This document shows positions 1-12,647 of a DNA stretch of 12,647 bases, in pieces. The DNA is taken from IMG/VR virus record IMGVR_UViG_2671180422_000004; one strand, written 5' to 3'. A model generated the notes under the pieces. It ran no database searches. It was not told the DNA's origin and saw nothing but the letters and a program-made list of their open reading frames with translations. The first letter of the stretch is position 1. Each line of letters starts with the position of its first letter. Source of the stretch: a virus. Its lineage: Duplodnaviria; Heunggongvirae; Uroviricota; Caudoviricetes. A program made the translations under genes and the position numbers.

Positions 1-642
1 TTAATCGGACGCTTTTAAATTTTTATTTTTCCCAGCAGAAAAATTAGCTTTCCCGCTGTTTTGCAACTCAACAAGAGGAGATAACCGTCGGTAAACAGCC
101 AAAAGTATCTTTAACTGAACCAGTTCATCTGCCCCCGATAGTTGAACCAAGTTTTTACGTTGTTCTTCACTAAGTGCCATCACAGATTCAAGTGATTTAA
201 CTGCGTCAGAAACAAGTTCAATCTCTTTAATTTGATTCTGTATACGCAGCTTCTCTGATTTCAACTTTGCCCATTCTCTTTGTCGATATGTACGCATCAC
301 CTGATCGTAAACTTTGTTGGCAGCCAGAATACTTCCACCAACAGCAGTAACTAACTCAGCAATCTGCCAAGAGATATCAATAAGAGCAGACAATTCAATA
401 AAGCCAGGAGAGGCATACTGAATTTTTTTCACTACAGGACGTAAATCTGGTGGAGTCGCACTGTAAGCCCCTCTAAAAAAGTTCACCACACTGTGCCCAC
501 CCTCCCAAGGCATTGTTGAATATCCTCTTGATCCTCCTTTTAGGCCATAAAAAAAACCATATAGCTGCAAATACTCTTTCGTTAAGACCGCGAAATCAGC
601 TAACTCCCAACGATTATCAAGCTCAATTATAACTTTTTCCAT
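1..642 (-). CDS. Hypothetical protein, 213 aa; AT-rich accessory ORF beyond ogr, function unknown
   Basis: Complete minus-strand ORF: ATG at 642-640, TAA stop at 3-1 (the window starts exactly at its stop). GGTGG SD-like element a few nt upstream. Visibly lower GC than the adjacent P2 genes. C-terminal half is K/E/L/Q-rich (coiled-coil-like). I recognise no catalytic motif. Confidence 0.55.
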   Translation of the reverse strand: MEKVIIELDNRWELADFAVLTKEYLQLYGFFYGLKGGSRGYSTMPWEGGHSVVNFFRGAYSATPPDLRPVVKKIQYASPGFIELSALIDISWQIAELVTAVGGSILAANKVYDQVMRTYRQREWAKLKSEKLRIQNQIKEIELVSDAVKSLESVMALSEEQRKNLVQLSGADELVQLKILLAVYRRLSPLVELQNSGKANFSAGKNKNLKASD

Positions 643-782: not shown

Positions 783-1001
783 TTACATCCACATAATTTG
801 CTGCCCTGACGGCAACGGGTGCGGCCTTACGGCGTGGACTTCTCCCGGTTTCACGATGTATCGCTGTACCGACTCATAAGTGATGAACGTGGCGCTGCAA
901 TTCACGTTCTGACACTGGTGATAACGCTCTTTTGTCGTGTCAGTAATATAGCGACTTGTACGCGCATGTGCGGCATGCTGGCATAAAGGACAATGAAACA
1001 T
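783..1001 (-). CDS. ogr: Ogr, zinc-finger late-gene transcriptional activator (72 aa)
   Basis: Translation from the internal ATG (1001-999) gives MFHCPLCQHAAHARTSRY...SGQQIMWM, 72 aa, with C-x2-C ... C-x4-C zinc-finger cysteines, matching my recollection of P2 Ogr. AGAGG-type SD about 8 nt upstream. The 93-aa ORF-track version starts at an upstream in-frame start codon that I consider unlikely. Confidence 0.9.
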   Translation of the reverse strand: MFHCPLCQHAAHARTSRYITDTTKERYHQCQNVNCSATFITYESVQRYIVKPGEVHAVRPHPLPSGQQIMWM

Positions 1002-1082: not shown

Positions 1083-1922
1083 TCACTCATCATCTTCTGT
1101 TTCGTACTCCACATCAGAAAGCCTGACCTCAAGCTCTAAGGACGTCGTGAAGCCGCTATTATTCAGAAAATGTGTCACCTTAGTGATTGTCCAGTCCTGC
1201 TCGTCTATGACGCGCTTAAAGCCTGACACTTTAACCGGTGTTTCCGTGTAAATATCAGCCCGACCGGTAGCCAGGCTGATGGAGAACTCCGCAACGCCCC
1301 GTTGCAGTTTATCCCACTTCGCCTGAGCGGCGCGCATGGCCTGCGCTTTCGTGGCATATACCGTAGTCAGGGCAAAAACATTGTCAGCCTCACCTGCCAT
1401 GTATTCACCTTCGCGCGCTTCCGGTACTTTTGGCGCTTTCTTCTGCGTGACCGGTTTCGCTTTCGGGTGCTCCAGTGCGCGCAGGTGTTTCTCTTTCTTT
1501 TTGCGTTTCAGTTTTACCTTCTGCTTTTGCGGCTTCGGGTCTTTGGTGTGTAACCACTTTGCCGTTACGCCGGTGTAGGCTCCACGGTCAGCAATCGCAA
1601 AATGATGGCGGTCACCGTCGCTGCGGGTGATGGTGACCTGCGGGATTTTTTTACCGCTGGCCGTCACCCCCTGCCCCGCTTTGAGAAACAGCAGTTTTCC
1701 CATTTTTACCGACACCTCACCGCCGTTGCGTTCTGCAAGACGGGTCAGAAATTTCGCATCAGACTCCTGCGACTGGTCGATGTGCGGGATTTTAATTCCG
1801 GCCAGTGACGGAGCGACACTGGCTTCCAGCCTGTTACGGGAGGCTACCCGTTCTGGTCGGGTGAACTGTTCAACCGGGGACGCGCCAGCGCCGCCGAACG
1901 CGTGGAAATCGACGTCAGTCAT
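1083..1922 (-). pseudogene. D: 5'-truncated tail gene D (phage late control D / gpD family), C-terminal about 270-280 codons retained
   Basis: C-terminal sequence (...IKIPHIDQSQESDAKFLTRLAERNGGEVSVKMGKLLFLKAGQGVTASGKKIPQVTITRSDGDRHHFAIADRGAYTGVTAKW ... lysine-rich linker ... SLELEVRLSDVEYETEDDE) reads as gpD family. P2 gpD is about 387 aa by recollection, and the N-terminal region is absent because the upstream open frame is antisense to terminase coding sequence. The minus frame stays open to 2219 and the ORF-track start at 2123 is a TTG; the true 5' limit is the deletion junction, which I cannot place exactly. Confidence 0.7.
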
Positions 1923-2741
1923 AACGCCCTTGCCGGTGGGCTTCTCTGTGCAGACGGCCAGTGGCGGCAGATTGTCACCATTGAGGACGCGCTGAAAGGC
2001 GGCTGCACGCTGTTCGACATTGAGCAGCTCAAACGTGAAAACAGCGCCGACGATTTTAAAAACCTGTTCATGTGTGAATTTGTTGACGACAAGGCGTCGG
2101 TGTTCCCGTTCGAGGAGCTGCAACGCTGCATGGTCGACACGCTGGAAGAATGGGAAGACTATGCGCCGTTTGCCGCGAATCCGTTCGGCTCCCGCCCGGT
2201 ATGGATTGGTTACGACCCGTCACACCGTGGCGACAGCGCCGGATGCGTGGTACTGGCACCGCCGGTGGTGGCCGGTGGCAAATTCAGAATACTTGAGCGT
2301 CACCAGTGGAAAGGCATGGACTTTGCCACTCAGGCGGAATCCATCCGCAAACTCACCGAAAAATACAACGTCGAATACATCGGTATTGATGCCACCGGCC
2401 TCGGTGTCGGCGTGTTCCAGCTCGTGCGCTCGTTCTATCCCGCCGCGCGCGATATCCGCTACACACCGGAAATGAAAACCGCAATGGTGCTCAAGGCAAA
2501 AGACGTCATCCGCCGTGGCTGTCTGGAATATGACGTCAGCGCCACCGACATCACCAGCTCGTTTATGGCTATCCGCAAGACCATGACCAGCAGCGGACGC
2601 AGCGCCACGTATGAGGCCAGCCGCAGCGAGGAAGCCAGCCACGCCGACCTCGCCTGGGCGACCATGCACGCCCTGTTAAATGAGCCACTCACCGCCGGTA
2701 TCAGCACCCCGCTGACATCCACCATTCTGGAGTTTTACTGA
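1902..2741 (+). pseudogene. P: 5'-truncated terminase large (ATPase/nuclease) subunit gene P, C-terminal about half retained
   Basis: Translation contains the terminase nuclease-domain signature ...RPVWIGYDPSHRGDSAGCVVLAPP...GKFRILERHQWKGMDFATQAESIRKLTEKYNVEYIGIDATGLGVGVFQ... and ends with a TGA overlapping the Q start (TGATG). P2 gpP is about 590 aa by recollection, so the N-terminal ATPase half is missing. The ORF-track start at 1902 is a GTG; the frame is open back to 1809, where an in-frame TGA sits. Confidence 0.75.
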
Positions 2742-3775
2742 TGAGCAAGAAAAAAGGGAAAACACCGCAACCTGCGGCCAAAAAAATGACCGCCAGCGCC
2801 CCGAAAATGGAAGCATTCACCTTTGGCGAGCCGGTACCGGTACTCGACCGCCGTGACATTCTGGATTACGTCGAGTGCATCAGTAACGGCAGATGGTATG
2901 AACCACCGGTCAGCTTTACCGGTCTGGCAAAAAGCCTGCGTGCTGCCGTGCATCACAGCTCACCGATTTACGTCAAACGTAATATTCTGGCCTCAACATT
3001 TATCCCGCATCCGTGGCTTTCCCAGCAGGATTTCAGCCGCTTTGTGCTGGATTTTCTGGTGTTCGGTAATGCGTTTCTGGAAAAGCGTTACAGCACCACC
3101 GGTAAGGTCATCAGACTGGAAACCTCACCGGCAAAATATACCCGTCGTGGCGTGGAGGAGGATGTTTACTGGTGGGTGCCGTCCTTCAACGAGCCGACAC
3201 CTTTCACGCCCGGCTCCGTGTTTCACCTGCTGGAGCCGGATATCAATCAGGAGCTGTACGGCCTGCCAGAATATCTGAGCGCCCTTAACTCTGCCTGGCT
3301 GAATGAGTCGGCCACGCTGTTCCGCCGCAAGTATTACGAAAACGGCGCTCATGCCGGATATATCATGTACGTCACCGATGCCGTGCAGGACCGCAACGAT
3401 ATCGAAATGCTTCGCGAAAACATGGTTAAGTCGAAAGGCCGCAACAACTTTAAAAATCTGTTTCTCTATGCCCCGCAGGGGAAAGCTGACGGCATTAAAA
3501 TTATCCCGCTCAGTGAAGTGGCAACGAAGGACGATTTTTTTAATATCAAAAAAGCCAGCGCCGCTGACCTGCTGGACGCGCACCGCATCCCCTTTCAGTT
3601 GATGGGCGGCAAGCCGGAGAACGTCGGGTCACTGGGAGATATTGAGAAAGTGGCAAAGGTCTTTGTCCGCAATGAGCTTATCCCGCTACAGGACAGGATC
3701 CGCGAGATAAACGGCTGGCTCGGTCAGGAGGTCATCCGCTTTAAAAACTACTCACTGGACACTGACAACGGCTGA
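2741..3775 (+). CDS. Q: Portal (capsid portal vertex) protein Q, 344 aa
   Basis: 344-aa product MSKKKGKTPQPAAKK...FKNYSLDTDNG, same length and lysine-rich N-terminus as P2 gpQ as I recall it. ATG at 2741 overlaps the P stop (coupled operon). Followed by a terminator. Confidence 0.92.
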   Translation: MSKKKGKTPQPAAKKMTASAPKMEAFTFGEPVPVLDRRDILDYVECISNGRWYEPPVSFTGLAKSLRAAVHHSSPIYVKRNILASTFIPHPWLSQQDFSRFVLDFLVFGNAFLEKRYSTTGKVIRLETSPAKYTRRGVEEDVYWWVPSFNEPTPFTPGSVFHLLEPDINQELYGLPEYLSALNSAWLNESATLFRRKYYENGAHAGYIMYVTDAVQDRNDIEMLRENMVKSKGRNNFKNLFLYAPQGKADGIKIIPLSEVATKDDFFNIKKASAADLLDAHRIPFQLMGGKPENVGSLGDIEKVAKVFVRNELIPLQDRIREINGWLGQEVIRFKNYSLDTDNG

Positions 3776-3780
3776 ACATC

Positions 3781-3802
3781 GCCGCCTGCGGGCGGCTTTT
3801 TT
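3781..3802 (+). terminator. Intrinsic terminator after Q
   Basis: GCCGCC (3781-3786) / loop TGCG / GGCGGC (3791-3796) followed by TTTTTT (3797-3802), 6 nt after the Q stop. Confidence 0.6.
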
Positions 3803-3944
3803 ACATCCCGTCATCACGCCCTCACACGCTCACCACCGCACAAAACAGTCCGCAGGCAAACCAACGCCTCAACGGACAGACTAAGCGCCGTCACGACGCG
3901 CTGAGACGCTGAAAAAATAAAATCAGCACCACCGCCAGCGCGCA

Positions 3945-3963
3945 GTGCTTTCCCCGCCTCGCC
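3945..3963. other. cos site: 19-nt cohesive-end sequence of P2 type
   Basis: Plus strand reads GTGCTTTCCCCGCCTCGCC, the reverse complement of GGCGAGGCGGGGAAAGCAC, which I recall as the P2 19-nt cohesive end. It sits where expected, between the Q end and the tin/old-equivalent region. Confidence 0.7.
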
Positions 3964-4057
3964 CGCCCGCTTCATGGGGCGGTTTTGATGCAACCTCGTA
4001 TTAAAGGGGACACCATAGCCCATCAAACCTCAGACTTCGCCCCTAGCTAACGTTTAT

Positions 4058-4087
4058 GAATGCAATGTAATGCAACTTAATGCAAGT
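4058..4087. repeat. Three tandem 10-bp units (GAATGCAATG / TAATGCAACT / TAATGCAAGT) about 60-90 bp upstream of the cargo gene; candidate regulator-binding array
   Basis: AATGCAA heptamer recurs at 4059-4065, 4069-4075 and 4079-4085, with exact 10-bp (one helical turn) phasing, in the AT-rich leader before the SD (AAGAGGA, 4134-4140) and ATG 4147. Confidence 0.45.
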
Positions 4088-4146
4088 TATGGTAATGATA
4101 ATTCTGCGTTAACAATTAAACTAATGTACCTGTAAGAGGATAAAAA

Positions 4147-6630
4147 ATGTCTGGTTTTTTCCTTGATTTAACCAAGCTTTCGCCCAGTGTAAATAGCGAC
4201 ACAGCGATTCCACCGCGAGATATATTTACAGCTCTACCGAGCAAAGACACCAAATTTCAATACCCTCGAGATGTGCAATCAGAGGTCTGGGAAAAATGGT
4301 ATGAAGCAAGGAGAAGCCCAACCAATGTAATAAAAATGAATACCGGAAGCGGTAAAACTTCAGTTGGGTTAATCATTCTTAAAAGCTGTATAAATGAAGG
4401 AGAAGGTCCCGCTGTATATGTTGTTCCTGACAACTATCTAGTTGAGCAAGTGGTTTTGGAGGCTAATCAACTTGGTATACCTGTAACTCAAGATGAGAGG
4501 TCCCCCAAATTTATTGCAGGTAAAGAAATTTTAGTTACAAATATATTCAAAGTGGTTAATGGACGTTCTGCATTTGGCGTTGGAGATGATGGACAAAGAA
4601 TACCAATAGGTTCTATAATAATTGACGATGCTCACGCTTGCCTTTCTTCAATTGAAGAACAATTCTCCATTAGCATTCAAAAAAACAACCCTGCCTATGA
4701 TAAATTATTCAGAATTTTTGAAAATTCACTAATGACACAAGCTGGTGCAAAAACACTAGAGATAAAATCCGGCGATAGAAATGCTTATGTGAGAGTTCCA
4801 TTTTGGAAATGGCAAGAAAGCATAAATGATATAATGACAATCTTGTTAGAAAATAAAGACCATGATGACTTGAGTTTCAAATGGCCATTAATAAAAGACA
4901 ATCTAATATTATCGAAATGCGTTGTAAGTGCTTCCAAAATAGAGATATCACCTCATTGCATACCAATCCAAATGATCCCAAGCCTATCAAACGCAAGAAG
5001 AAAAATATTCATGACAGCTACTCTTGTCGATGAATCCATTCTAGCGAGCCACTTCGGAATAACGGATGAATCACTCTCTAATCCGATAACACCAAAAACA
5101 ATTGGTGATATTGGTGATAGAATGATACTAATGCCTCAGGTTATAAACCCTAGTCTTTCTGATGTAGATATCAAAGCTATGTGCAAGGAGATATCCTCCA
5201 AACATAATGTTGTTGTAATTGTACCATCCGATTACAGAACTAGATTTTGGCAAGATGTTGCAGACAGAATATTAGATAAAAATACAATTTATCAAGGTGT
5301 ACAAGAATTAAGGACACAACATGTTGGCTTAGTAGTCCTAGTTAATAGATATGATGGTATTGATTTACCAAATACCGCATGTCGTCTATTAGTAATAGAT
5401 GGACTTCCTGACGTTCGTAGACTAATAGATAAAGTCTCACAAAGCTTATTGCTTGGAAGCGAAAAAACCAAAGATGAAATTATCCAGAAAATTGAACAAG
5501 GAATGGGGCGAGGAGTGAGATCAAGCGACGACTTCTGCGGAGTGATCTTACTTGGCAAAGCATTAAATGGCGCTGTTTTCCTTGGCTCCTCCTTAGAAAG
5601 GTTTTCTCCAGCAACGAAAGCACAAATTCAACTTTCACAGCAATTGGTATCGATACTGCCGGATACAACTATTGATTCAATCAAAGGTGCTCTTGATTAT
5701 TGTCTGTTACGCAATTCTGACTGGGTCTCAAAAAGCAAAGGTATATTGACTGGCTTAACATTGGAAAATAAGCAGATTGACCAGCATACTATAAATAAAA
5801 GATTGGCATATGACTTAGCATCACGAAATATGTTTCAACAAGCCGCTTTAACTCTAAAAAATGATAGTAGTACAGCTGACAAAGTTTATAAGGGTTATCT
5901 AAAAGAACATGCTGCGGAATATGTAAACTTATATGACAAATCTGAAGCTCAGATATTGCTTCAGTCTGCATCAAACGATAACTATCGGGTATTAAAACCA
6001 CTAATCGGCGTAACATATAATAGACTTAATGGTGCGGCACTTGAACAGGCCAGGGAATGTAGCTCCTATCTCAGAAGTAATTTTGAATCGGCCAATCAAG
6101 TCGTTGTGCATACTAATTCAATAATAGAAAACCTTATTTTCTCCGAGGGCACATCGAATCCCTTCGAAGATGCTATCGAAAAAGTTGCATATTTGGTCGG
6201 TTTTCGTAGCCAACGGCCAGAAAATGATACAGGTAAAGGACCTGACAATTTATGGGCAATGGGAGAAAACAATTATCTAGTAATTGAATGCAAAAATGGA
6301 GCAACCGCAGAAAGAATAAGTAAGCATGACTGCAATCAGTTAAATGGGTCGGGTGCATGGTTCAGAAACATGTATGATCAAACTGCTACCGCCACACCTA
6401 TAATGATACATCACTCTAATATGCCTGAATATGCCGCAACACTAAACGAAGGGTCTCGAATAATGACCATAAATGATCTTGAACGTTTTAAAGCATCTAT
6501 CCTCAGTTTTATCACGGCCATTTGTACAAGTGATAAACGACACGATGAGATATTTATAAGAGAACAATTGATCACATGTAAATTACGTGCATCAGACATA
6601 GTTGAAACCTATACGCGAAACCCTCGTTAA
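4147..6630 (+). CDS. Helicase-nuclease fusion protein, 827 aa: N-terminal SF2 DExH-type helicase core plus C-terminal PD-(D/E)xK nuclease-like domain; candidate anti-phage defence/exclusion protein
   Basis: Strong SD AAGAGGA 6 nt before ATG. Helicase motifs in order: I NTGSGKT (aa 65-71; nt 4339-4359), Ia AVYVVPDNYLVEQ, II IIIDDAHA (DDAH, aa 160-163; nt 4624-4635), III FMTATL, V YDGIDLPNTACRLLVIDGLPD, VI QGMGRGVRSSDDFCGVILLG. C-terminal FEDAIEK ... GPD (D700; nt 6244-6246) ... VIECK (E714/K716; nt 6286-6294) fits an E..PD..ExK restriction-endonuclease-like active site. GC clearly lower than the phage backbone (about 30-43% in two 60-nt samples I counted). Confidence 0.85.
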   Translation: MSGFFLDLTKLSPSVNSDTAIPPRDIFTALPSKDTKFQYPRDVQSEVWEKWYEARRSPTNVIKMNTGSGKTSVGLIILKSCINEGEGPAVYVVPDNYLVEQVVLEANQLGIPVTQDERSPKFIAGKEILVTNIFKVVNGRSAFGVGDDGQRIPIGSIIIDDAHACLSSIEEQFSISIQKNNPAYDKLFRIFENSLMTQAGAKTLEIKSGDRNAYVRVPFWKWQESINDIMTILLENKDHDDLSFKWPLIKDNLILSKCVVSASKIEISPHCIPIQMIPSLSNARRKIFMTATLVDESILASHFGITDESLSNPITPKTIGDIGDRMILMPQVINPSLSDVDIKAMCKEISSKHNVVVIVPSDYRTRFWQDVADRILDKNTIYQGVQELRTQHVGLVVLVNRYDGIDLPNTACRLLVIDGLPDVRRLIDKVSQSLLLGSEKTKDEIIQKIEQGMGRGVRSSDDFCGVILLGKALNGAVFLGSSLERFSPATKAQIQLSQQLVSILPDTTIDSIKGALDYCLLRNSDWVSKSKGILTGLTLENKQIDQHTINKRLAYDLASRNMFQQAALTLKNDSSTADKVYKGYLKEHAAEYVNLYDKSEAQILLQSASNDNYRVLKPLIGVTYNRLNGAALEQARECSSYLRSNFESANQVVVHTNSIIENLIFSEGTSNPFEDAIEKVAYLVGFRSQRPENDTGKGPDNLWAMGENNYLVIECKNGATAERISKHDCNQLNGSGAWFRNMYDQTATATPIMIHHSNMPEYAATLNEGSRIMTINDLERFKASILSFITAICTSDKRHDEIFIREQLITCKLRASDIVETYTRNPR

Positions 6631-6639
6631 ACAGTAAAA

Positions 6640-6662
6640 GACCACCTCCTAAGGAGGTGGTC
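6640..6662. terminator. Hairpin between the convergent cargo gene and gene A; likely terminator, better on the minus strand
   Basis: GACCACCTCC (6640-6649) / loop TAA / GGAGGTGGTC (6653-6662), starting 10 nt after the cargo stop. On the minus strand the stem is followed by TTTTAC; on the plus strand the U-tract is poor (CTTGTATAAT). Confidence 0.5.
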
Positions 6663-6869
6663 CTTGTATAATAAAAAGAACCAGTTTTTATTGTTAATAA
6701 TACAATTCTCGAATTTCAACATAGACTTATTGTACCACCAGTAAAATCATCAATATTAATATATAGAAAAAAAGAAATGTCGATTGTTTGTACGTAGCGT
6801 AATCATATTAACATATACAGATAAACAGCAACCTTACCATTATGCAACCAATCTAAAACATTATGTTTA

Positions 6870-9149
6870 TTACTCTGAATAACCAGAAAACCCACTCCAC
6901 TCATCTACACTAGGATATGAAAATTGCTTTTCATTGTAATTGACGATCGCACCGCGTACTAACGCCTCAAGCTCCCATCGCTGCGGCCTGATACCGTTTT
7001 GAGCAAGGTCAACACGGATACGGGTGATTTGCAATCGTTCAGACCGGGTCAGTCTGGCCGATGGTGCAATTTCATGTGGTTTTAACGGGCTTCCGTTTCT
7101 TTGCTGACGACCTGGCGTTCTCCGACCGTGTTTTAATGCACCCCTGAGCGCCCTCACGACCTCCGGGTCATTCCATTCGATAACACCGTCATCAACCAGA
7201 TTTAGCACTGCTGCGGCGTGCTCAGAAGGTGTGGGAGCCGGTAACGAAGTATCACCACCGGTGAGCTTTCCACAGTTATTGACAGGACTCCGAGGCGCGG
7301 CGATGCCGCTTTTTAAAGTCAAAGGCTCAACGACCGGAACTTTCGGCACAATGCGCCAGTCCGTCGTTCTGGTGATATGAATATGACGCGCGCCGAGATG
7401 CGGCGCGTAAATGCCGACCACTCTCTCGACTTCTTCCTCGTACTCGTTAACGTCATCCGACAGACTACGGGCGACCCTGACAGTCTGACAATCGCGCGGG
7501 ACATTTGCCCCGCCCTGCGCGCTGATATACAGCGCAAAATCACCACTGTCTGCGGCGGCGCGTGCAGCCTCGACGCGCTCGTCAAACTCATCAGCAATGC
7601 TGACGCCGCGAGGCAATTTGCGTAGTTCACGGTAAGCCCCCATTGTCGGCAGGCCAACCGTTTTAAATTGCGGAATGCGCCACGTTGACGCCCATGCGGT
7701 AACAGCCGCTGCAGTGTCTTTCAGCGGCCTGCCGGTGTCGTTATCGAGCTGACCATCCAGTGCATAGCCGTCGATGTTTTTTGAAATGTATTTCGCGATA
7801 TATCCCGCAGCACCGCCCCGGTTAAGGTGTTTTGCCTGAAAACGGTTTCGCGCGGCTCCTCTTTCGTCGCCATCCTCTTTGAGCGCATAGCGACGCATGA
7901 TTTCGATAATCTGGTTACGCTGGCGTGGATGACAAAAAAGCATCATATGCCAGTGCGGCGTTCCGTCGTGGTGTGGCTCGACGACTCGCAAACCGTAGAC
8001 CTGTAAATCATTATCCTTGAATGCCGTGCGCATCAGGCTCCAGATACGGCAGAGATAACGCTGCGCATCCTTTGGATTAAATGCCTCATCGTTCCAGCCG
8101 TGATTAAGCTGAACGGTTTTACTTTCGCCTTTTCCGACCTGACGTGTCGGGTGATACTTTGACGGCGCGGTCAGCGTGATAAACATCCCCACATCACCCT
8201 CTGCGGCGGCGTAACGCTCAATACCGGCAATGGTGTTCATCAGCTCCATCCGGCGAATTTCAGGATTAGAAATACTGCCCATCACCTTACTGATAAGGTC
8301 GATGCGCTCGCCGGTTTCCCTGTTTTCAAGGTCACACGATTTAAGAAATTCCAGATTTGCCTGGCGGCGCGCACGCACATCACGAATGGCGTGTTTACTG
8401 GCATAAGGAGAACGGTCTTTATTGACCTCCCCGACAGCTATCAGTAACGCCTCATGCCAGCGCATACGCTGGCCTTTAAGCTGATGAGTCCACCACTCAT
8501 CGTTAAACAGGCGGGCAATGGCAGAATATGCCTGCCTCGTGGTCATCTGTCCTTTACGGTATTTTTTCCAGTAGAGCGGGGAAATATTGAAAGCACGTGC
8601 AGCGCCAGCAACATGACCATACAGGTGAGCCTGCGCCTCATCCGTAAACAGCGATTCTTTTTCACCATGCGCATCAACCCATGCATCGCAGAGTTCCTCA
8701 TACATCATGAAAAGCTGCGATGAGATACGGGCGGCAAACTTTTTCAGCTCCTTGTCATTCATTCCCGGCAGGCGCGCATAGTGGTCACGCTCTGCCAGAA
8801 ACAGCAACGACGCGTCGGTGTTCATTTCATGGCGCTGATTCACACGCTCAATGCGCGGCCATAAACGACGCTGAAAAGTAGATGTGAGGAAATAAAACCC
8901 GTGCACCGGGCTTTTATTGCGCCGGATGTAGTCATAGCGTGAAGTAAACAGCGAGCGCAAAAAGTAAGGCAGGCGGTTAATCGTGGATAAAACACCTTGC
9001 ACCTGACGCATCTCGTCACGTGTAAGAGGTCTTTCGCGCCCGACAGCCTCGCGTGGCGCGTTCCATGCATAAGCACCGGTAAACGCCTTACCGGTGCCTG
9101 CGGTAAATGCTGACGGAGGGACAAAACGCCCGGAGGCTTTAACGGCCAT
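6870..9149 (-). CDS. A: Replication initiation protein A (rolling-circle initiator endonuclease), about 759 aa
   Basis: Translation from ATG 9149 starts MAVKASGRFVPPSAF..., which matches my recollection of the P2 gpA N-terminus and length (about 761 aa). The ORF-track start at 9191 is a TTG giving 14 extra residues, which I reject. The last ~25 codons use AT-rich codons unlike the rest of the gene. Confidence 0.9.
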   Translation of the reverse strand: MAVKASGRFVPPSAFTAGTGKAFTGAYAWNAPREAVGRERPLTRDEMRQVQGVLSTINRLPYFLRSLFTSRYDYIRRNKSPVHGFYFLTSTFQRRLWPRIERVNQRHEMNTDASLLFLAERDHYARLPGMNDKELKKFAARISSQLFMMYEELCDAWVDAHGEKESLFTDEAQAHLYGHVAGAARAFNISPLYWKKYRKGQMTTRQAYSAIARLFNDEWWTHQLKGQRMRWHEALLIAVGEVNKDRSPYASKHAIRDVRARRQANLEFLKSCDLENRETGERIDLISKVMGSISNPEIRRMELMNTIAGIERYAAAEGDVGMFITLTAPSKYHPTRQVGKGESKTVQLNHGWNDEAFNPKDAQRYLCRIWSLMRTAFKDNDLQVYGLRVVEPHHDGTPHWHMMLFCHPRQRNQIIEIMRRYALKEDGDERGAARNRFQAKHLNRGGAAGYIAKYISKNIDGYALDGQLDNDTGRPLKDTAAAVTAWASTWRIPQFKTVGLPTMGAYRELRKLPRGVSIADEFDERVEAARAAADSGDFALYISAQGGANVPRDCQTVRVARSLSDDVNEYEEEVERVVGIYAPHLGARHIHITRTTDWRIVPKVPVVEPLTLKSGIAAPRSPVNNCGKLTGGDTSLPAPTPSEHAAAVLNLVDDGVIEWNDPEVVRALRGALKHGRRTPGRQQRNGSPLKPHEIAPSARLTRSERLQITRIRVDLAQNGIRPQRWELEALVRGAIVNYNEKQFSYPSVDEWSGFSGYSE

Positions 9150-9414
9150 ATGAGCCAAAAGCCTCTGAACAACGCTTGCTGAGTTGCTCAACCTGCGCGT
9201 TTAAATCAGCAAAAGATTTTGCGCTTCCGGTCAGAATATCGTGATGCATCAGGCCGGAAACGAGCTGGCCTAATTTCGGGTAATAACCAACCACCGCCAG
9301 CCATTCCTGACCGGCGTTTTTACCGCTTTCCGCTCTCTTTTTCTCGTGGAGAATAAACTGAAAGCTGTCACTGGTAACGACATAACGTTCGCCAATTTCA
9401 ATACGAATACTCAT
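9139..9414 (-). CDS. Small early-operon protein, P2 orf83-like (91 aa)
   Basis: ORF in the position of P2 orf83 immediately upstream of A; its start overlaps the orf82 stop (ATGA-type coupling). Confidence 0.7.
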   Translation of the reverse strand: MSIRIEIGERYVVTSDSFQFILHEKKRAESGKNAGQEWLAVVGYYPKLGQLVSGLMHHDILTGSAKSFADLNAQVEQLSKRCSEAFGSYGR

Positions 9415-9635
9415 GCCGTTCTCCGGTAATGTTTGTTTTTTGCTTCAAAGACTGACTGACAGGAAACACAACGCGTGGCTGACGGATAAGCCGCACGACG
9501 GGCAGCAGGTATTGGCGCGTCACACTCTTCGCAAACCAGCGCAGAAACACCGCAATGTTTTACCCTTGCCGCGTTAATCTGGCGCTCCAGTAATTCAGCC
9601 TGTTGTTCCTGAATAAAATCCACGTTGTCCGGCAT
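9411..9635 (-). CDS. TraR/DksA-family C4 zinc-finger protein, P2 orf82-like (74 aa)
   Basis: CEEC ... CVSC four-cysteine arrangement in a 74-aa protein; position between the orf81-like and orf83-like ORFs; start overlaps the upstream stop. Confidence 0.8.
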   Translation of the reverse strand: MPDNVDFIQEQQAELLERQINAARVKHCGVSALVCEECDAPIPAARRAAYPSATRCVSCQSVFEAKNKHYRRTA

Positions 9636-9940
9636 TACCAGCTCCTTTTGTCGTTCAGCTTCTTAAATTCATCAGCGCAATAACTGGCGAGTTCTGTCGT
9701 TAATTTTGTCAGTTCATCCACTGAGGAAATTTGCTTGTGGAATACAGCGCGTTTAACAAGTAAATTGACCACATCAGACAGGAGGTTTAATTCACTCTGA
9801 TAAATCGCGATAACAGATTCAGTTATTTCGCGCTTCTCTTTATCAATACCAAGTTGAATAAGAGACAAATCACCATTTTTCATAACGGCGATTTTTAAGG
9901 CGTTATTCAGTAATACAACCGAACGAGAACAGGACATCAA
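9635..9940 (-). CDS. Small early-operon protein, P2 orf81-like (101 aa)
   Basis: ORF with start overlapping the orf80-like stop; position conserved in the P2 early operon between B and A. Confidence 0.7.
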
Positions 9941-10161
9941 AGCACCTCCCCGCGAGACAATCCGATATTGTGAAATTTTTCCGACTCCTGACTGAGCAGC
10001 TCAACTATCTCCACGCGGGATAACTCCGCCTTTGTGATGTGGCGAATCATGGCGTCAAGATGAGAAGAAAAGCGCGTCGCAGCGTCGGCCTGTGCTTCGG
10101 TTCTGGCCTGTTGCAGCAGTAATGCGTATTTACCGCACTGATTTTCAGAAACTGTATGCAT
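9937..10161 (-). CDS. Small early-operon protein, P2 orf80-like (74 aa)
   Basis: ATG at 10161-10159 preceded by GGAG about 7 nt upstream; located immediately after B in the early operon. Confidence 0.7.
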
Positions 10162-10224
10162 GACTTTCTCCAGGCAAAAAGAAGCCCCGCACGATTAAGT
10201 GCGTTAAAAACTCTGGTTAATTAT

Positions 10225-10725
10225 TTAATGCAGATATTGCTCTGGTTTTACCGACGTCAGAATTGTCGGTGCATACTCAAACAGACTGAATAATTCACGT
10301 AATGCACGGAATAAAGCATCACGCCAGTAACATGATTCTTCATTAATTCGCCAGTACGGCTGATTGAATTCTTTTTCTGTCAATCCCGCATGCATAAATA
10401 AAGTACGACGCTGACTGACTGTTAAAAAACTAATATATGCATACTCACTTGCGCCGACCTGACGGCGTTTTGAGAATGCGCCACGCAATTCATCAATTGC
10501 ACAAACCAGTCGTTCACGTTCGACGTCGTTCATTTCTTCAAAACGCATCGTTGCGTGACGCTGTTTTAACTGTGCATGAAAGCAAACCGTTAGCCGTTCG
10601 CGCTCCATCATCTGATTATAATAATCACATGTATCCTGCCAGCGAGGGACGGCAAGATGCTTGCCAATTATCCGGCGCATAGCTGCTGGCTGTTTTTCAA
10701 CGAGATTGAGCGTCATCACTGTCAT
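10225..10725 (-). CDS. B: Replication protein B (helicase-loader-like), 166 aa
   Basis: Translation from ATG 10725 starts MTVMTLNLVEKQPAAMRRIIGKHLAVPRWQDTCDYYNQMMERERL..., consistent with my recollection of P2 gpB (166 aa). GGAGGG SD is 7 nt upstream of this ATG and only 1 nt from the ORF-track ATG at 10731, so I take 10725 as the start. Confidence 0.85.
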   Translation of the reverse strand: MTVMTLNLVEKQPAAMRRIIGKHLAVPRWQDTCDYYNQMMERERLTVCFHAQLKQRHATMRFEEMNDVERERLVCAIDELRGAFSKRRQVGASEYAYISFLTVSQRRTLFMHAGLTEKEFNQPYWRINEESCYWRDALFRALRELFSLFEYAPTILTSVKPEQYLH

Positions 10726-10892
10726 TTCCATACCCTCCGGCTTTTCAGAAAGGTCAGAGCCTTTTTTAACGGACTCTGTTTTTTGGTGCGGATAATGATT
10801 CCCTTACGCCCCTTACCGTGGGTGATGGTGAAGTCAATCGCCCTGGGGCTTTCGTTACGCAATAACTGAGCAATACAACGCGGCTCATTCAT
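10722..10892 (-). CDS. Small protein, P2 orf78-like (56 aa)
   Basis: Sits between cox and B; ATG 10892 follows the cox stop (10895-10897) and its stop overlaps the B start. The longer ORF-track version (start 10919) would overlap cox. Confidence 0.55.
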   Translation of the reverse strand: MNEPRCIAQLLRNESPRAIDFTITHGKGRKGIIIRTKKQSPLKKALTFLKSRRVWK

Positions 10893-10894
10893 AA

Positions 10895-11182
10895 TCACAA
10901 CCCCATCCACAAAAGCCATGCATCACGCTGTTCAACCGGTCGGTTATAAAACGCCTCACGTACAGCGCGATTAAACTCAGGAATGAAAACCCATTTTTCA
11001 CCGGCACGAGCCTTCGGTTTGCAAGGATCACGCAATTCAATAATTGGTAATTTATTTGCCTTCACCATTTCACTGACGGCTGTCTTTGGCTTCCCTAATA
11101 AATCAGCAAATTTATCCACATGAACCGCATCAAGCGGATACTGAATCACATAATTTTCAGCGTCCATATATGGTACCCTCAT
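10895..11182 (-). CDS. cox: Cox-type excisionase / early repressor of the lysogenic promoter (90-95 aa)
   Basis: First gene of the early operon, divergent from C; size and basic character fit the P2 Cox family. Start is ambiguous: ATG 11182 (95 aa) or ATG 11167 (90 aa), the latter with GAGGG 8 nt upstream. Confidence 0.8.
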   Translation of the reverse strand: MRVPYMDAENYVIQYPLDAVHVDKFADLLGKPKTAVSEMVKANKLPIIELRDPCKPKARAGEKWVFIPEFNRAVREAFYNRPVEQRDAWLLWMGL

Positions 11183-11303
11183 AGGATCCAGCCCTTTCTA
11201 AACCACTCAAAACCGTTTAGATGCTGGTTTATTCTCAAATCAATGGAACCTATATAGGTTCCAGTTTTGAGGGAATTTAGTCCCTATATAGGCACCATGT
11301 CAA
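11183..11303. promoter_or_regulatory. Immunity switch region (Pe/Pc-type promoters and operators) between cox and C
   Basis: Intergenic region between the divergent cox and C genes. Contains the 18-bp perfect palindrome GGAACCTATATAGGTTCC (11245-11262) and a second copy of its core, CCTATATAGG (11283-11292), in AGTCCCTATATAGGCACC; both carry TATATA (-10-like) hexamers. Confidence 0.6.
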
Positions 11304-11597
11304 ATGAAATTAAGCGAAAAGATTAAGGCCTTGCGTGAGGCTGAAGGGCTAAGCCAATCAAAATTCTGTGAAATCATAGAGTTACCGCTAAGCACACTTA
11401 AAAAATATGAAGGAGGAAACTTTGAACCCGGTGGCACAGCTTTGCTAAAAATCACTATGCATCCCACATTCCAAAAATATGCTCTATGGCTTATGACAGA
11501 TAAAACCGCGCCGGACGCAGGACAAATCGCACCGGCTCTCGCGCACATTGGGCCAGAGTCAACAGAGTCCAACCACTCCGCGAAAAGGATTGGCTAA
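11304..11597 (+). CDS. C: Immunity repressor C (P2 C family, 97 aa)
   Basis: 97-aa product ending ...WLMTDKTAPDAGQIAPALAHIGPESTESNHSAKRIG; the C-terminal half closely resembles my recollection of P2 C (...QIAPESGQIAPALAHFGQ...), while the N-terminal DNA-binding part differs. Position between the switch region and int. Confidence 0.85.
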   Translation: MKLSEKIKALREAEGLSQSKFCEIIELPLSTLKKYEGGNFEPGGTALLKITMHPTFQKYALWLMTDKTAPDAGQIAPALAHIGPESTESNHSAKRIG

Positions 11598-11666
11598 CTC
11601 TATATAAAGATTACATTTTCACCATTTGCTACCAAGATGGTGAATACAGCGCCGGAGGGCTTTCTT

Positions 11667-12647
11667 ATGGCAATTAAGAAGCTCGATGATGGTCGCTATG
11701 AAGTGGACATTAGACCTCGCGGTCGCGACGGAAAACGCATCCGCAGGAAATTCGAAAGAAAAGCTGAAGCACTAGCATTTGAGCGATACACAATCGCCAA
11801 TGCCAGTCAGAAAGAATGGGGAGGCCAGCGAGCAGACCGCCGGACTTTGAGTGAGTTGCTGGACATCTGGTGGAAATATCACGGGCAAAACCACGAGCAT
11901 GGAACAAAAGAGTTTAATCATCTACTCAAAACCATCAGCGGCATAGGTGATATACCAGTGAGCAGGATGAGCAAAAGGGCTTTGATGGATTATCGTTCCA
12001 TGCGACTACGTGATGGTATCAGTGCCGCAACGATAAACCGTGACATGTACCGATTATCCGGCATGTTCACAAAATTAATTCAATTGGATGAATTTTCCGG
12101 GCAACACCCAATTCACGGACTGCCGCCACTGGCGGAGGCCAACCCTGAAATGACGTTCCTGGAAAAAGCAGAAATCGAAAAACTGTTAAATGTTTTGGCT
12201 GGTGATGACTTACTTGTCGCGCTTTTATGTCTGAGCACCGGAGGAAGATGGACGGAAGTTGCCACGCTAAAACCAGCACAGATTACAAATTGCAGGGTTA
12301 CCTTCCTGAAAACCAAAAACGGTAAAAAGCGAACCGTGCCGATTTCTGAGGAACTGGAGAAAAAAGTTAAAGAGGAGGCCAGCGCCAAATTATTCAAAGT
12401 TGATTATGAGAAATTTTGCGGGATTTTACGCAGAGTGAAACCTGATATACCACCCAATCAGGCAACCCACATCCTGCGGCATACATTCGCAAGCCATTTC
12501 ATGATGAATGGGGGCAATATAATCGCACTGCAACAGATTCTGGGACATGCGAGCATTCAGCAGACGATGGCCTATGCGCACCTTGCGCCTGACTATCTGC
12601 AAAATGCCGTCGCTCTGAATCCACTAAAAGGCGGAGTGACGTTATAA
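11667..12647 (+). CDS. int: Tyrosine integrase, P2 Int family (326 aa)
   Basis: Translation from ATG 11667 (GGAGGG SD 7 nt upstream) starts MAIKKLDDGRYEVDIRPRGRDGKRIRRKF... and contains the catalytic-domain signatures ...ATHILRHTFASHFMMNGGNIIALQQILGHASIQQTMAYAHLAPDYL (R, H-x-x-R, Y). TAA stop is the last 3 nt of the window. The ORF-track start at 11637 adds 10 residues, which I consider less likely. Confidence 0.9.
   Translation: MAIKKLDDGRYEVDIRPRGRDGKRIRRKFERKAEALAFERYTIANASQKEWGGQRADRRTLSELLDIWWKYHGQNHEHGTKEFNHLLKTISGIGDIPVSRMSKRALMDYRSMRLRDGISAATINRDMYRLSGMFTKLIQLDEFSGQHPIHGLPPLAEANPEMTFLEKAEIEKLLNVLAGDDLLVALLCLSTGGRWTEVATLKPAQITNCRVTFLKTKNGKKRTVPISEELEKKVKEEASAKLFKVDYEKFCGILRRVKPDIPPNQATHILRHTFASHFMMNGGNIIALQQILGHASIQQTMAYAHLAPDYLQNAVALNPLKGGVTL

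Follow-up and report, generated by a model that had tools for sequence, protein, structure and literature searches.

Gene content of the window

The window, that is, the whole stretch of 12,647 bp of DNA that was analysed, is a P2-like (Peduovirus) prophage lying in reversed orientation with respect to the P2 map. When it is turned round, its orthologous proteins follow the P2 order int-C-cox-B-A-[hotspot]-cos-Q-P...D-ogr (Table 1), and the genes from ogr to int are P2 orthologues with the exception of a large cargo gene between A and cos. The original prediction had listed int, cox, the C/cox switch, the A/B replication module, the portal gene Q and the late activator ogr among the parts kept by the element, and all of these are present: int, cox, C, B, A, Q and ogr are full length and match functional phages. 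The closest complete genome is that of Escherichia coli EC2, in which the same element sits between fieF and cpxP. Late-gene-bearing prophages in many complete genomes are 100% identical to the window outside a single deletion, and keep P, O, N, M and the other genes that it has lost.

Table 1. Features of the window (positions in the 12,647-bp stretch; aa, amino acids)
Feature	Position	Strand	Evidence or remark
213-aa accessory ORF	1..642	-	PADLOC PD-T4-10_B, E=1.3e-34, C-terminal part
ogr, late-gene activator, 72 aa, intact	783..1001	-	NCBIfam NF007241, E=4.6e-53, 72/72 positions; 98.9% aa identity to P2
D' fragment, C-terminal 254 codons of tail gene D, N-terminus deleted	1083..1846	-	Partial Pfam Phage_GPD
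D'/'P deletion junction, 3-bp microhomology 'cta'	1844..1846		Alignment to EC2
'P fragment, C-terminal ~297 codons of large terminase	1847..2741	+	Pfam Terminase_6C complete, Terminase_6N tail only
Q, portal gene, 344 aa, intact	2741..3775	+	Pfam Phage_portal; 98.8% aa identity to P2 Q
tQ, rho-independent terminator of P-Q operon	3781..3796	+	Terminator scan; aligns with annotated P2 tQ
cos core common to P2, P4 and 186	3938..3993		Alignment of circularised cos regions
First TGCA box, within cos core	3989..3992		Offset +26 from cos
Three TGCA boxes, 10-bp spacing	4061..4084		Offsets +98, +108 and +118 from cos
Cargo, putative Hna-family helicase/nuclease, 827 aa	4147..6630	+	PADLOC PDC-S28, E=0; Pfam ResIII/DEAD/Helicase_C_2
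A, rolling-circle replication endonuclease, 759 aa	6870..9149	-	Pfam Phage_GPA, E=3e-124; 96.5% aa identity to P2 A; EC2 annotation
Homologues of P2 orf83, orf82, orf81 and orf80, small early genes	9139..10161	-	95-99% aa identity to P2; EC2 annotation
B, replication gene, intact	10225..10725	-	99.4% aa identity to P2 B; EC2 annotation
cox, excisionase and Pc repressor	10895..11167	-	Pfam Phage_Cox; 45% aa identity to P2 Cox
C, immunity repressor, 97 aa	11304..11597	+	Pfam HTH_3 only; 43% aa identity to P2 C
int, tyrosine integrase, 326 aa	11667..12647	+	Pfam Int_N and Phage_integrase; 98.2% aa identity to phage 899 Int, 52% to P2 Int

Missing from the window are O, N, M, L, X, Y, K, R, S, V, W, J, I, H, G, FI, FII, E, T and U, and with them the complete morphogenetic, terminase and lysis modules, of which only Q and two fragments are left. 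The earlier statement that the element has no capsid or tail genes was correct, but it passed over these dead fragments, D' (the C-terminal 254 aa) and 'P (the C-terminal ~297 aa). In tblastn comparisons D' matches P2 D from residue ~134 through the end, and 'P is 100% identical in amino acid sequence to the C-terminus of P2 P, keeping only the nuclease domain, with both the ATPase N-terminus and the late promoter gone. The promoter of the P2 P operon sits upstream of P, in the part deleted from the window; hence Q is cut off from its late promoter and is left without one of its own.

The early region, in contrast to the late one, shows the parts of a working replicon. The region of the replication origin (ori) nick lies inside A at about 7251-7330 and is identical to P2 at 79/80 nt around the annotated nick site, so that the element has its own origin together with full-length A and B. 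The C/cox region is at least 99% identical at the nucleotide level to that of L-413C and of 17 other phage records (18 in total), including P2-T22, R18C and YpM_50, and the immunity region is accordingly of the L-413C/T22 type and not of the P2 type. As the C repressor has a helix-turn-helix (HTH) domain only and is without a peptidase domain, SOS induction should not be expected, as with the repressor of P2; repressors of the P2 type are not induced by the SOS response (PMC2669165). The att core and the Int arm sites fall beyond the end of the window. In EC2 the att site is a 47-nt direct repeat (46/47 identical; L001, 7872-7918 and 24413-24459), and arm-type repeats of the form TGTCCACATAG[C/T]GTCCACA are present. 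The proposal that the element keeps what is needed for excision, replication and packaging therefore holds for int, cox, A, B, ori and cos, all of which are intact, but the att and Int arm sites lie outside the window and were seen only in EC2.

The 213-aa ORF between ogr and the att site is the second accessory gene of the element. It has no Pfam match and no partner A gene in the window, and it is annotated as hypothetical in EC2. Phage 899 and P2 have no counterpart, ogr being followed directly by att/int in both, and the position of this ORF may represent a third accessory-gene slot in the prophage lineage. Compared with EC2, the window has 4 extra nt between this ORF and ogr, at about 643-782. 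This insertion is the sole indel in the 12.6 kb that the two share, and it lies in none of the annotated genes.

The cos site and its distal boxes

Window positions 3945-3963 read gtgctttccccgcctcgcc, the exact (19/19) reverse complement of the P2 cohesive end GGCGAGGCGGGGAAAGCAC, which is annotated as cosL/cosR in the P2 reference NC_001895 and also forms the ends of P4. The chance expectation for a given 19-mer is about 1e-7 in 12.6 kb, counting both strands. On the Q side of cos the homology with P2 is continuous up to tQ. On the cargo side about 30 bp (3964-3993, with the hairpin at 3963-3982 included) match P2, P4 and 186, and the homology of the window to other P2-like phages stops at about 3992. 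The core shared by P2, P4 and 186, namely TGCATTAAAACCGCCCC...GCGGGCG followed by cos and.GCGCGC, corresponds to the '55-bp cos' of the literature (PMC9594776, PMC2231350). The prediction of a 19-nt P2-type cohesive end with its flanks was thus borne out by an exact match and conserved flanks, and the interval for which it was made, 3776-4146, proves to cover the whole packaging signal, including the distal boxes described below. Nothing reached the Rfam gathering threshold anywhere in the window. An ORF of 70 aa (3814-4026, minus strand) spans cos, and several phage records have its equivalents annotated as hypothetical; as it would be split in two in the mature linear genome, it is almost certainly no true gene.

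Two differences set the cos core of the window apart from that of P2: a base in the hairpin loop, where 186 has the same base as the window, and an A>G change at +24 (3987), adjoining the first TGCA box. Position +24 is A in 10/10 isolated phages and satellites (P2, P4, 186, 10W, D8, PhiR44_1, P2-T22, vB_YpM_50, pro483 and 899) and G in 8/8 of the prophages examined that carry the Hna cargo. We considered whether this G is a cos-inactivating mutation tied to the cargo, the positions needed for terminase recognition being judged by conservation only, and find this unlikely: a scan of IMG/VR prophages also showed G beside three other, unrelated cargo flanks, making four flanks in all. Because of this recurrence, the +24 G is a natural polymorphism and not a private lesion. 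A tblastn search of isolated phage genomes with the cargo found no carrier phage, the sole match being 30% identical and from a Salmonella record, and hence no virion-derived sequence shows a cos with G at +24 at work.

Beyond about +30 from cos, the sequence is cargo-specific and unrelated between phages. Nevertheless, P2, P4, 186 and the other elements compared have TGCA boxes at the same offsets as the window, where they begin at 3989, 4061, 4071 and 4081 (+26, +98, +108 and +118). We compared 13 distinct flanks, from the window, P2 (L002), P4 (L003), 186 (L004) and the collected loci L006, L016-L020, L024, L027 and L030. A TGCA box occurs at +26 in 12/13 of these, at +32 in 8/13, at +97/98 in 13/13, at +107/108 in 10/13 and at +117 to +121 in 6/13. 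The sequence from +36 to +95 has a median ungapped identity of only 0.33 over the 13 flanks, with values of 0.23-0.37 for the window against the others, and yet this spacer of ~65 bp between the boxes is constant in length. Even P4, which beyond the boxes has nothing but the cos core in common with P2, carries them. From these patterns we infer that the TGCA boxes may form a phased distal part of the terminase recognition region. This reading fits the finding that longer cos flanks on a cosmid bring a roughly 1e4-fold gain in P2 transduction (PMC9594776). By the same token, the predicted packaging signal of the element in the window appears complete.

Cargo distribution and the deletion junction

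The protein encoded by the cargo gene combines, in one chain, an SF2 helicase region at the N-terminus with a nuclease at the C-terminus. Residues 60-792 match PDB 10UJ/9YKJ, the Hna of Sinorhizobium meliloti, with E=7e-121, and these structures have been assigned to Hna (PMC13381803). The PADLOC PDC-S28 and Hna structure matches together uphold the earlier 'helicase-nuclease' label, and the protein can be placed in the Hna family of helicase/nuclease defence proteins. A phage SSB activates Hna, which is a 3'-5' ssDNA exonuclease. The protein in the window shares the helicase plus nuclease architecture of S. meliloti Hna (PMC13381803), from which it differs in being an E. coli prophage-borne homologue of putative anti-phage activity. 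PADLOC still names its family only as the candidate PDC-S28. A sigma-70 consensus scan of 3700-4250 found no promoter for the cargo.

A cos-proximal hotspot with defence cargo between A and Q is already known from P2-like prophages (Rousset et al. 2022, PMC9122126), which have the same order of A, cargo, cos and Q and likewise carry defence genes. Typical members of that group keep their late genes, whereas the late region as a whole is gone from the copy in the window. There is also a systematic description of defective P2-like elements in which defence genes are conserved (PMC13586616). The cargo is present at an identity of at least 99% in 69 of 5,426 complete E. coli genomes, and an identical protein is indexed in 1,619 blocks of an assembly collection. 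In 66 of these 69 genomes the cargo is joined without a break, by way of cos, Q and P, to the capsid gene N. Furthermore, one of the eight cargo places listed (L012) has a different int, C, cox and insertion site. The cargo and its cos flank therefore move between phage backbones that keep their capsid and packaging genes, and the contiguity in 66/69 genomes together with the second backbone explains the horizontal spread of the cargo by such prophages.

The remnant in the window, in contrast, is a singleton with no sign of spread. In alignment with EC2, positions 1-1846 of the window match up to the middle of D, and the match resumes in the middle of P for positions 1844-12647, the two sequences being otherwise colinear. 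Relative to the P2 map the deletion comprises roughly 21 kb of late genes. Compared with a full prophage the element lacks all head, tail and lysis genes and all late promoters, as well as the small terminase gene M and the ATPase half of P. A megablast search with the D'/'P junction gave 0 matches in the 5,426 complete E. coli genomes, and an exact 30-mer across it is absent from the GTDB species representatives, the JGI metagenomes and IMG/VR. A recurring, horizontally spreading lineage is thus not supported by any of these four collections. Two IMG/VR contigs of 10.9-11.5 kb with the same cargo (L021 and L022) were considered as similar remnants and rejected; they are truncated pieces that are colinear into P past the position of the junction and end at int.

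These features are consistent with one event of illegitimate recombination, which would have used the 3-bp microhomology to fuse the middle of D to the middle of P, and would in the same step have taken out the head, tail and lysis genes without exception, together with the two terminase functions and all of the late promoters. On such a course cos would have been spared by position alone, lying on the far side of Q from the deletion and beside the accessory-gene hotspot. The description of cos as 'retained' had implied selection; this is not needed, since cos survives because it lies outside a single D-to-P deletion.

The prophage lineage degrades often, and by several routes. EC2 itself is another decay product of the same prophage, with the arrangement D-U'-ISEc12-'P, and in other genomes of the lineage A is truncated or interrupted by ISEc12, or ISEc12 lies between Q and the cargo. 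ISEc12 belongs to the IS21 family and has inserted independently at several places in the lineage (L001, 10772-13075; L008, 13802-16104; L010, 7484-9786; L013, about 14418-16098). The insertion in L010 parts cos from the cargo gene.

Prospects of mobilisation and the satellite question

With flanks of the EC2 type, the excised circle is predicted to measure 12,892 bp (about 12.9 kb), which is 0.38 of P2 and 1.11 of P4. The original prediction was that, if the element made up about one third of a P2 genome, it could be packaged as a multimer in the manner of P4-sized genomes. A trimer, at 1.15 of P2 (115%), does not bear this out, but a dimer, at 0.77 (77%), fits. A dimer in a P2 head is plausible and an under-filled monomer borderline; a trimer is unlikely, as packaging into a P4-sized head would also be. 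The terminase of the P2/P4 system uses closed circles, and 5-10-kb circles with cos are packaged in it; P4 heads packaged cosmids of 5 and 8 kb, whereas one of 3 kb (about 27% of the P4 genome) was not delivered (PMC2231350). More generally, P2 packages any replicon with the P2/P4 cos (PMC9594776, PMC2231350), and for cos plasmids the transduction by P2vir1 reaches 0.035 per plaque-forming unit (PMC9594776). P2/P4 cosmids (Kahn et al. 1991; PMC9594776; PMC2231350), as circular cos replicons that are cut and packaged by the P2 terminase, are an apt comparison for the predicted circle. They differ from the remnant in being high-copy plasmids in cells where the helper is growing, whereas the remnant is integrated, repressed and single-copy; in addition, flanking sequence strongly affects the efficiency with which cosmids are packaged (PMC9594776, PMC2231350).

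The nearest precedent is Sp13 of E. coli O157:H7 Sakai (Asadulghani et al. 2009), a P2-like prophage that, like the element in the window, has lost most morphogenetic and packaging genes and kept its early functions. It excises, replicates and yields DNase-protected DNA in particles (PMC2669165). In contrast to the element in the window, which has no such gene, Sp13 has a P4 epsilon-like gene and is mitomycin-inducible. Given this precedent and the ability of P2 to transduce any cos replicon, it is reasonable to regard the remnant as packageable in principle. Its competence for excision, replication and packaging is something we infer from the state of its parts: with intact cis sites and early genes it may flip the C/Cox switch, excise and replicate from ori. 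The terminase of a P2-type phage would then cut it at cos, and the packaged form would be a circle of ~12.9 kb or, better, a 25.8-kb dimer. Any such mobilisation would probably be of the rare, incidental kind documented for defective prophages and cos plasmids. The suggestion of packaging by a helper is in this respect mechanistically possible and has precedent, but no means of sensing a helper was found in the sequence.

The further description of the element as satellite-like is not supported. With a satellite it shares the lack of structural genes and a cos common to the helper. P4 and the remnant have in common the 19-nt cos, its core of ~55 bp, TGCA boxes at +26, +98 and +108, an activator of the Ogr/Delta type and the lack of capsid and tail genes, and they are similar in size (about 11.6 kb for P4 and about 12.9 kb for the remnant). 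However, P4 has an alpha primase-helicase replicon, the epsilon antirepressor, Sid, which determines capsid size, Psu and a widespread lineage, and the remnant has none of these. Among the genes of the window there is no alpha primase-helicase, epsilon antirepressor, Sid, Psu or P4-type integrase, nor a candidate for helper-responsive induction or exploitation; C has the HTH domain only, and Int and Cox differ in specificity from those of P2. Ogr, as a homologue of Delta, is the only relative of a P4 marker, and neither Hna nor the 213-aa ORF is one. Hence there are no hijacking genes of the P4 type and no induction trigger, the junction is unique, and the cargo is found mostly in capsid-bearing prophages.

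Taken as a whole, the remnant is most probably a private deletion derivative of a widespread P2-like (Peduovirus) prophage, produced by ordinary decay and not a satellite, and it is best read as a recent decay product. That the D'/'P junction is instead an artefact of assembly or extraction, the source having a full-length or EC2-type prophage, appears very improbable. The junction does occur in no other genome, and the nearest genome has ISEc12, a misassembly-prone repeat, within the missing interval; but at either end this interval reaches past the IS, into D and P sequence that is unique, and a 3-bp microhomology at the join is typical of real illegitimate recombination. A possible, if doubtful, alternative is that the element is a domesticated defence island, kept for Hna, for the PD-T4-10_B-like gene and for the superinfection immunity conferred by C, the loss of lysis and late genes benefiting the host and cos being a neutral passenger. 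Two defence-type genes and C are indeed intact, and the deletion takes exactly the genes that are lethal to the host. Against long-term retention speaks the private junction, and the undecayed early and replication genes (100% identical to those of late-gene-bearing prophages) point to a recent event.

The original prediction, that the remnant is a helper-mobilisable, satellite-like element which a P2-like phage packages via cos and which thereby spreads the Hna gene, we consider unlikely. It accords with the intact cos and accessory motifs, with the intact int, cox, C, B, A and ori, which would be found in a mobilisable element, and with the P2vir1, cos-circle and Sp13 precedents given above. 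Moreover P2, 899 and 186 are heteroimmune to the C repressor and so could grow in a cell that carries it. Yet these phages have no known way to derepress the remnant, and homoimmune phages of the L-413C type would be repressed by it. P2 A acts in cis. Given this, the lack of a route of derepression by heteroimmune helpers and an Int only 52% identical to that of P2, the remnant would have to derepress spontaneously in a cell in which the helper is growing. The absence of epsilon, Sid, Psu and alpha, the lack of any trigger coupled to a helper, the unique junction and the overwhelming occurrence of the cargo in prophages with capsid and packaging genes all count against the prediction, as does a size of 0.38 of P2, which is unfavourable to trimer packaging. 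Only one scenario would favour it, in which a co-resident homoimmune prophage with its structural and packaging genes still in place is induced together with the remnant. A more novel reading, which we hold to be quite improbable, is a nascent 'mini-P2' satellite formed in one step: a self-excising, self-replicating 12.9-kb circle with a complete packaging signal, whose dimer would be packaged through homoimmune co-induction or by a heteroimmune phage. If true, P2 satellites could arise directly from the helper family by a single deletion.

If it were mobilised, the remnant would give the Hna defence gene an extra route from one E. coli strain to another, and would illustrate how a phage can decay until it hitch-hikes on its relatives. 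What the evidence shows instead is that the cargo moves in prophages bearing head and packaging genes, and that the copy in the remnant is a dead-end decay product. Beside the observed anatomy of the remnant, the intactness of its parts, the uniqueness of its junction and the distribution of its cargo, mobilisation at some level could in principle occur, by analogy with Sp13. The hotspot with defence cargo, defective defence-bearing P2-like elements, the packaging of Sp13 and the transduction of cos replicons by P2 were all known already. The practical value of the present case lies mostly in annotation, as a defective P2-like prophage with a functional-looking cos and a gene of the Hna family in the cos-proximal hotspot. 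The most useful by-product is the set of fixed-offset TGCA boxes: on the cargo side the reach of the conserved packaging signal would be about 125 bp, and it is about this far from cos that the 'variable hotspot' effectively begins. The IMG/VR prophage L021, which has the same cargo, has four 10-bp TGCA units after +98 (about 2925-2965) and not three, so the copy number of the distal box array varies.
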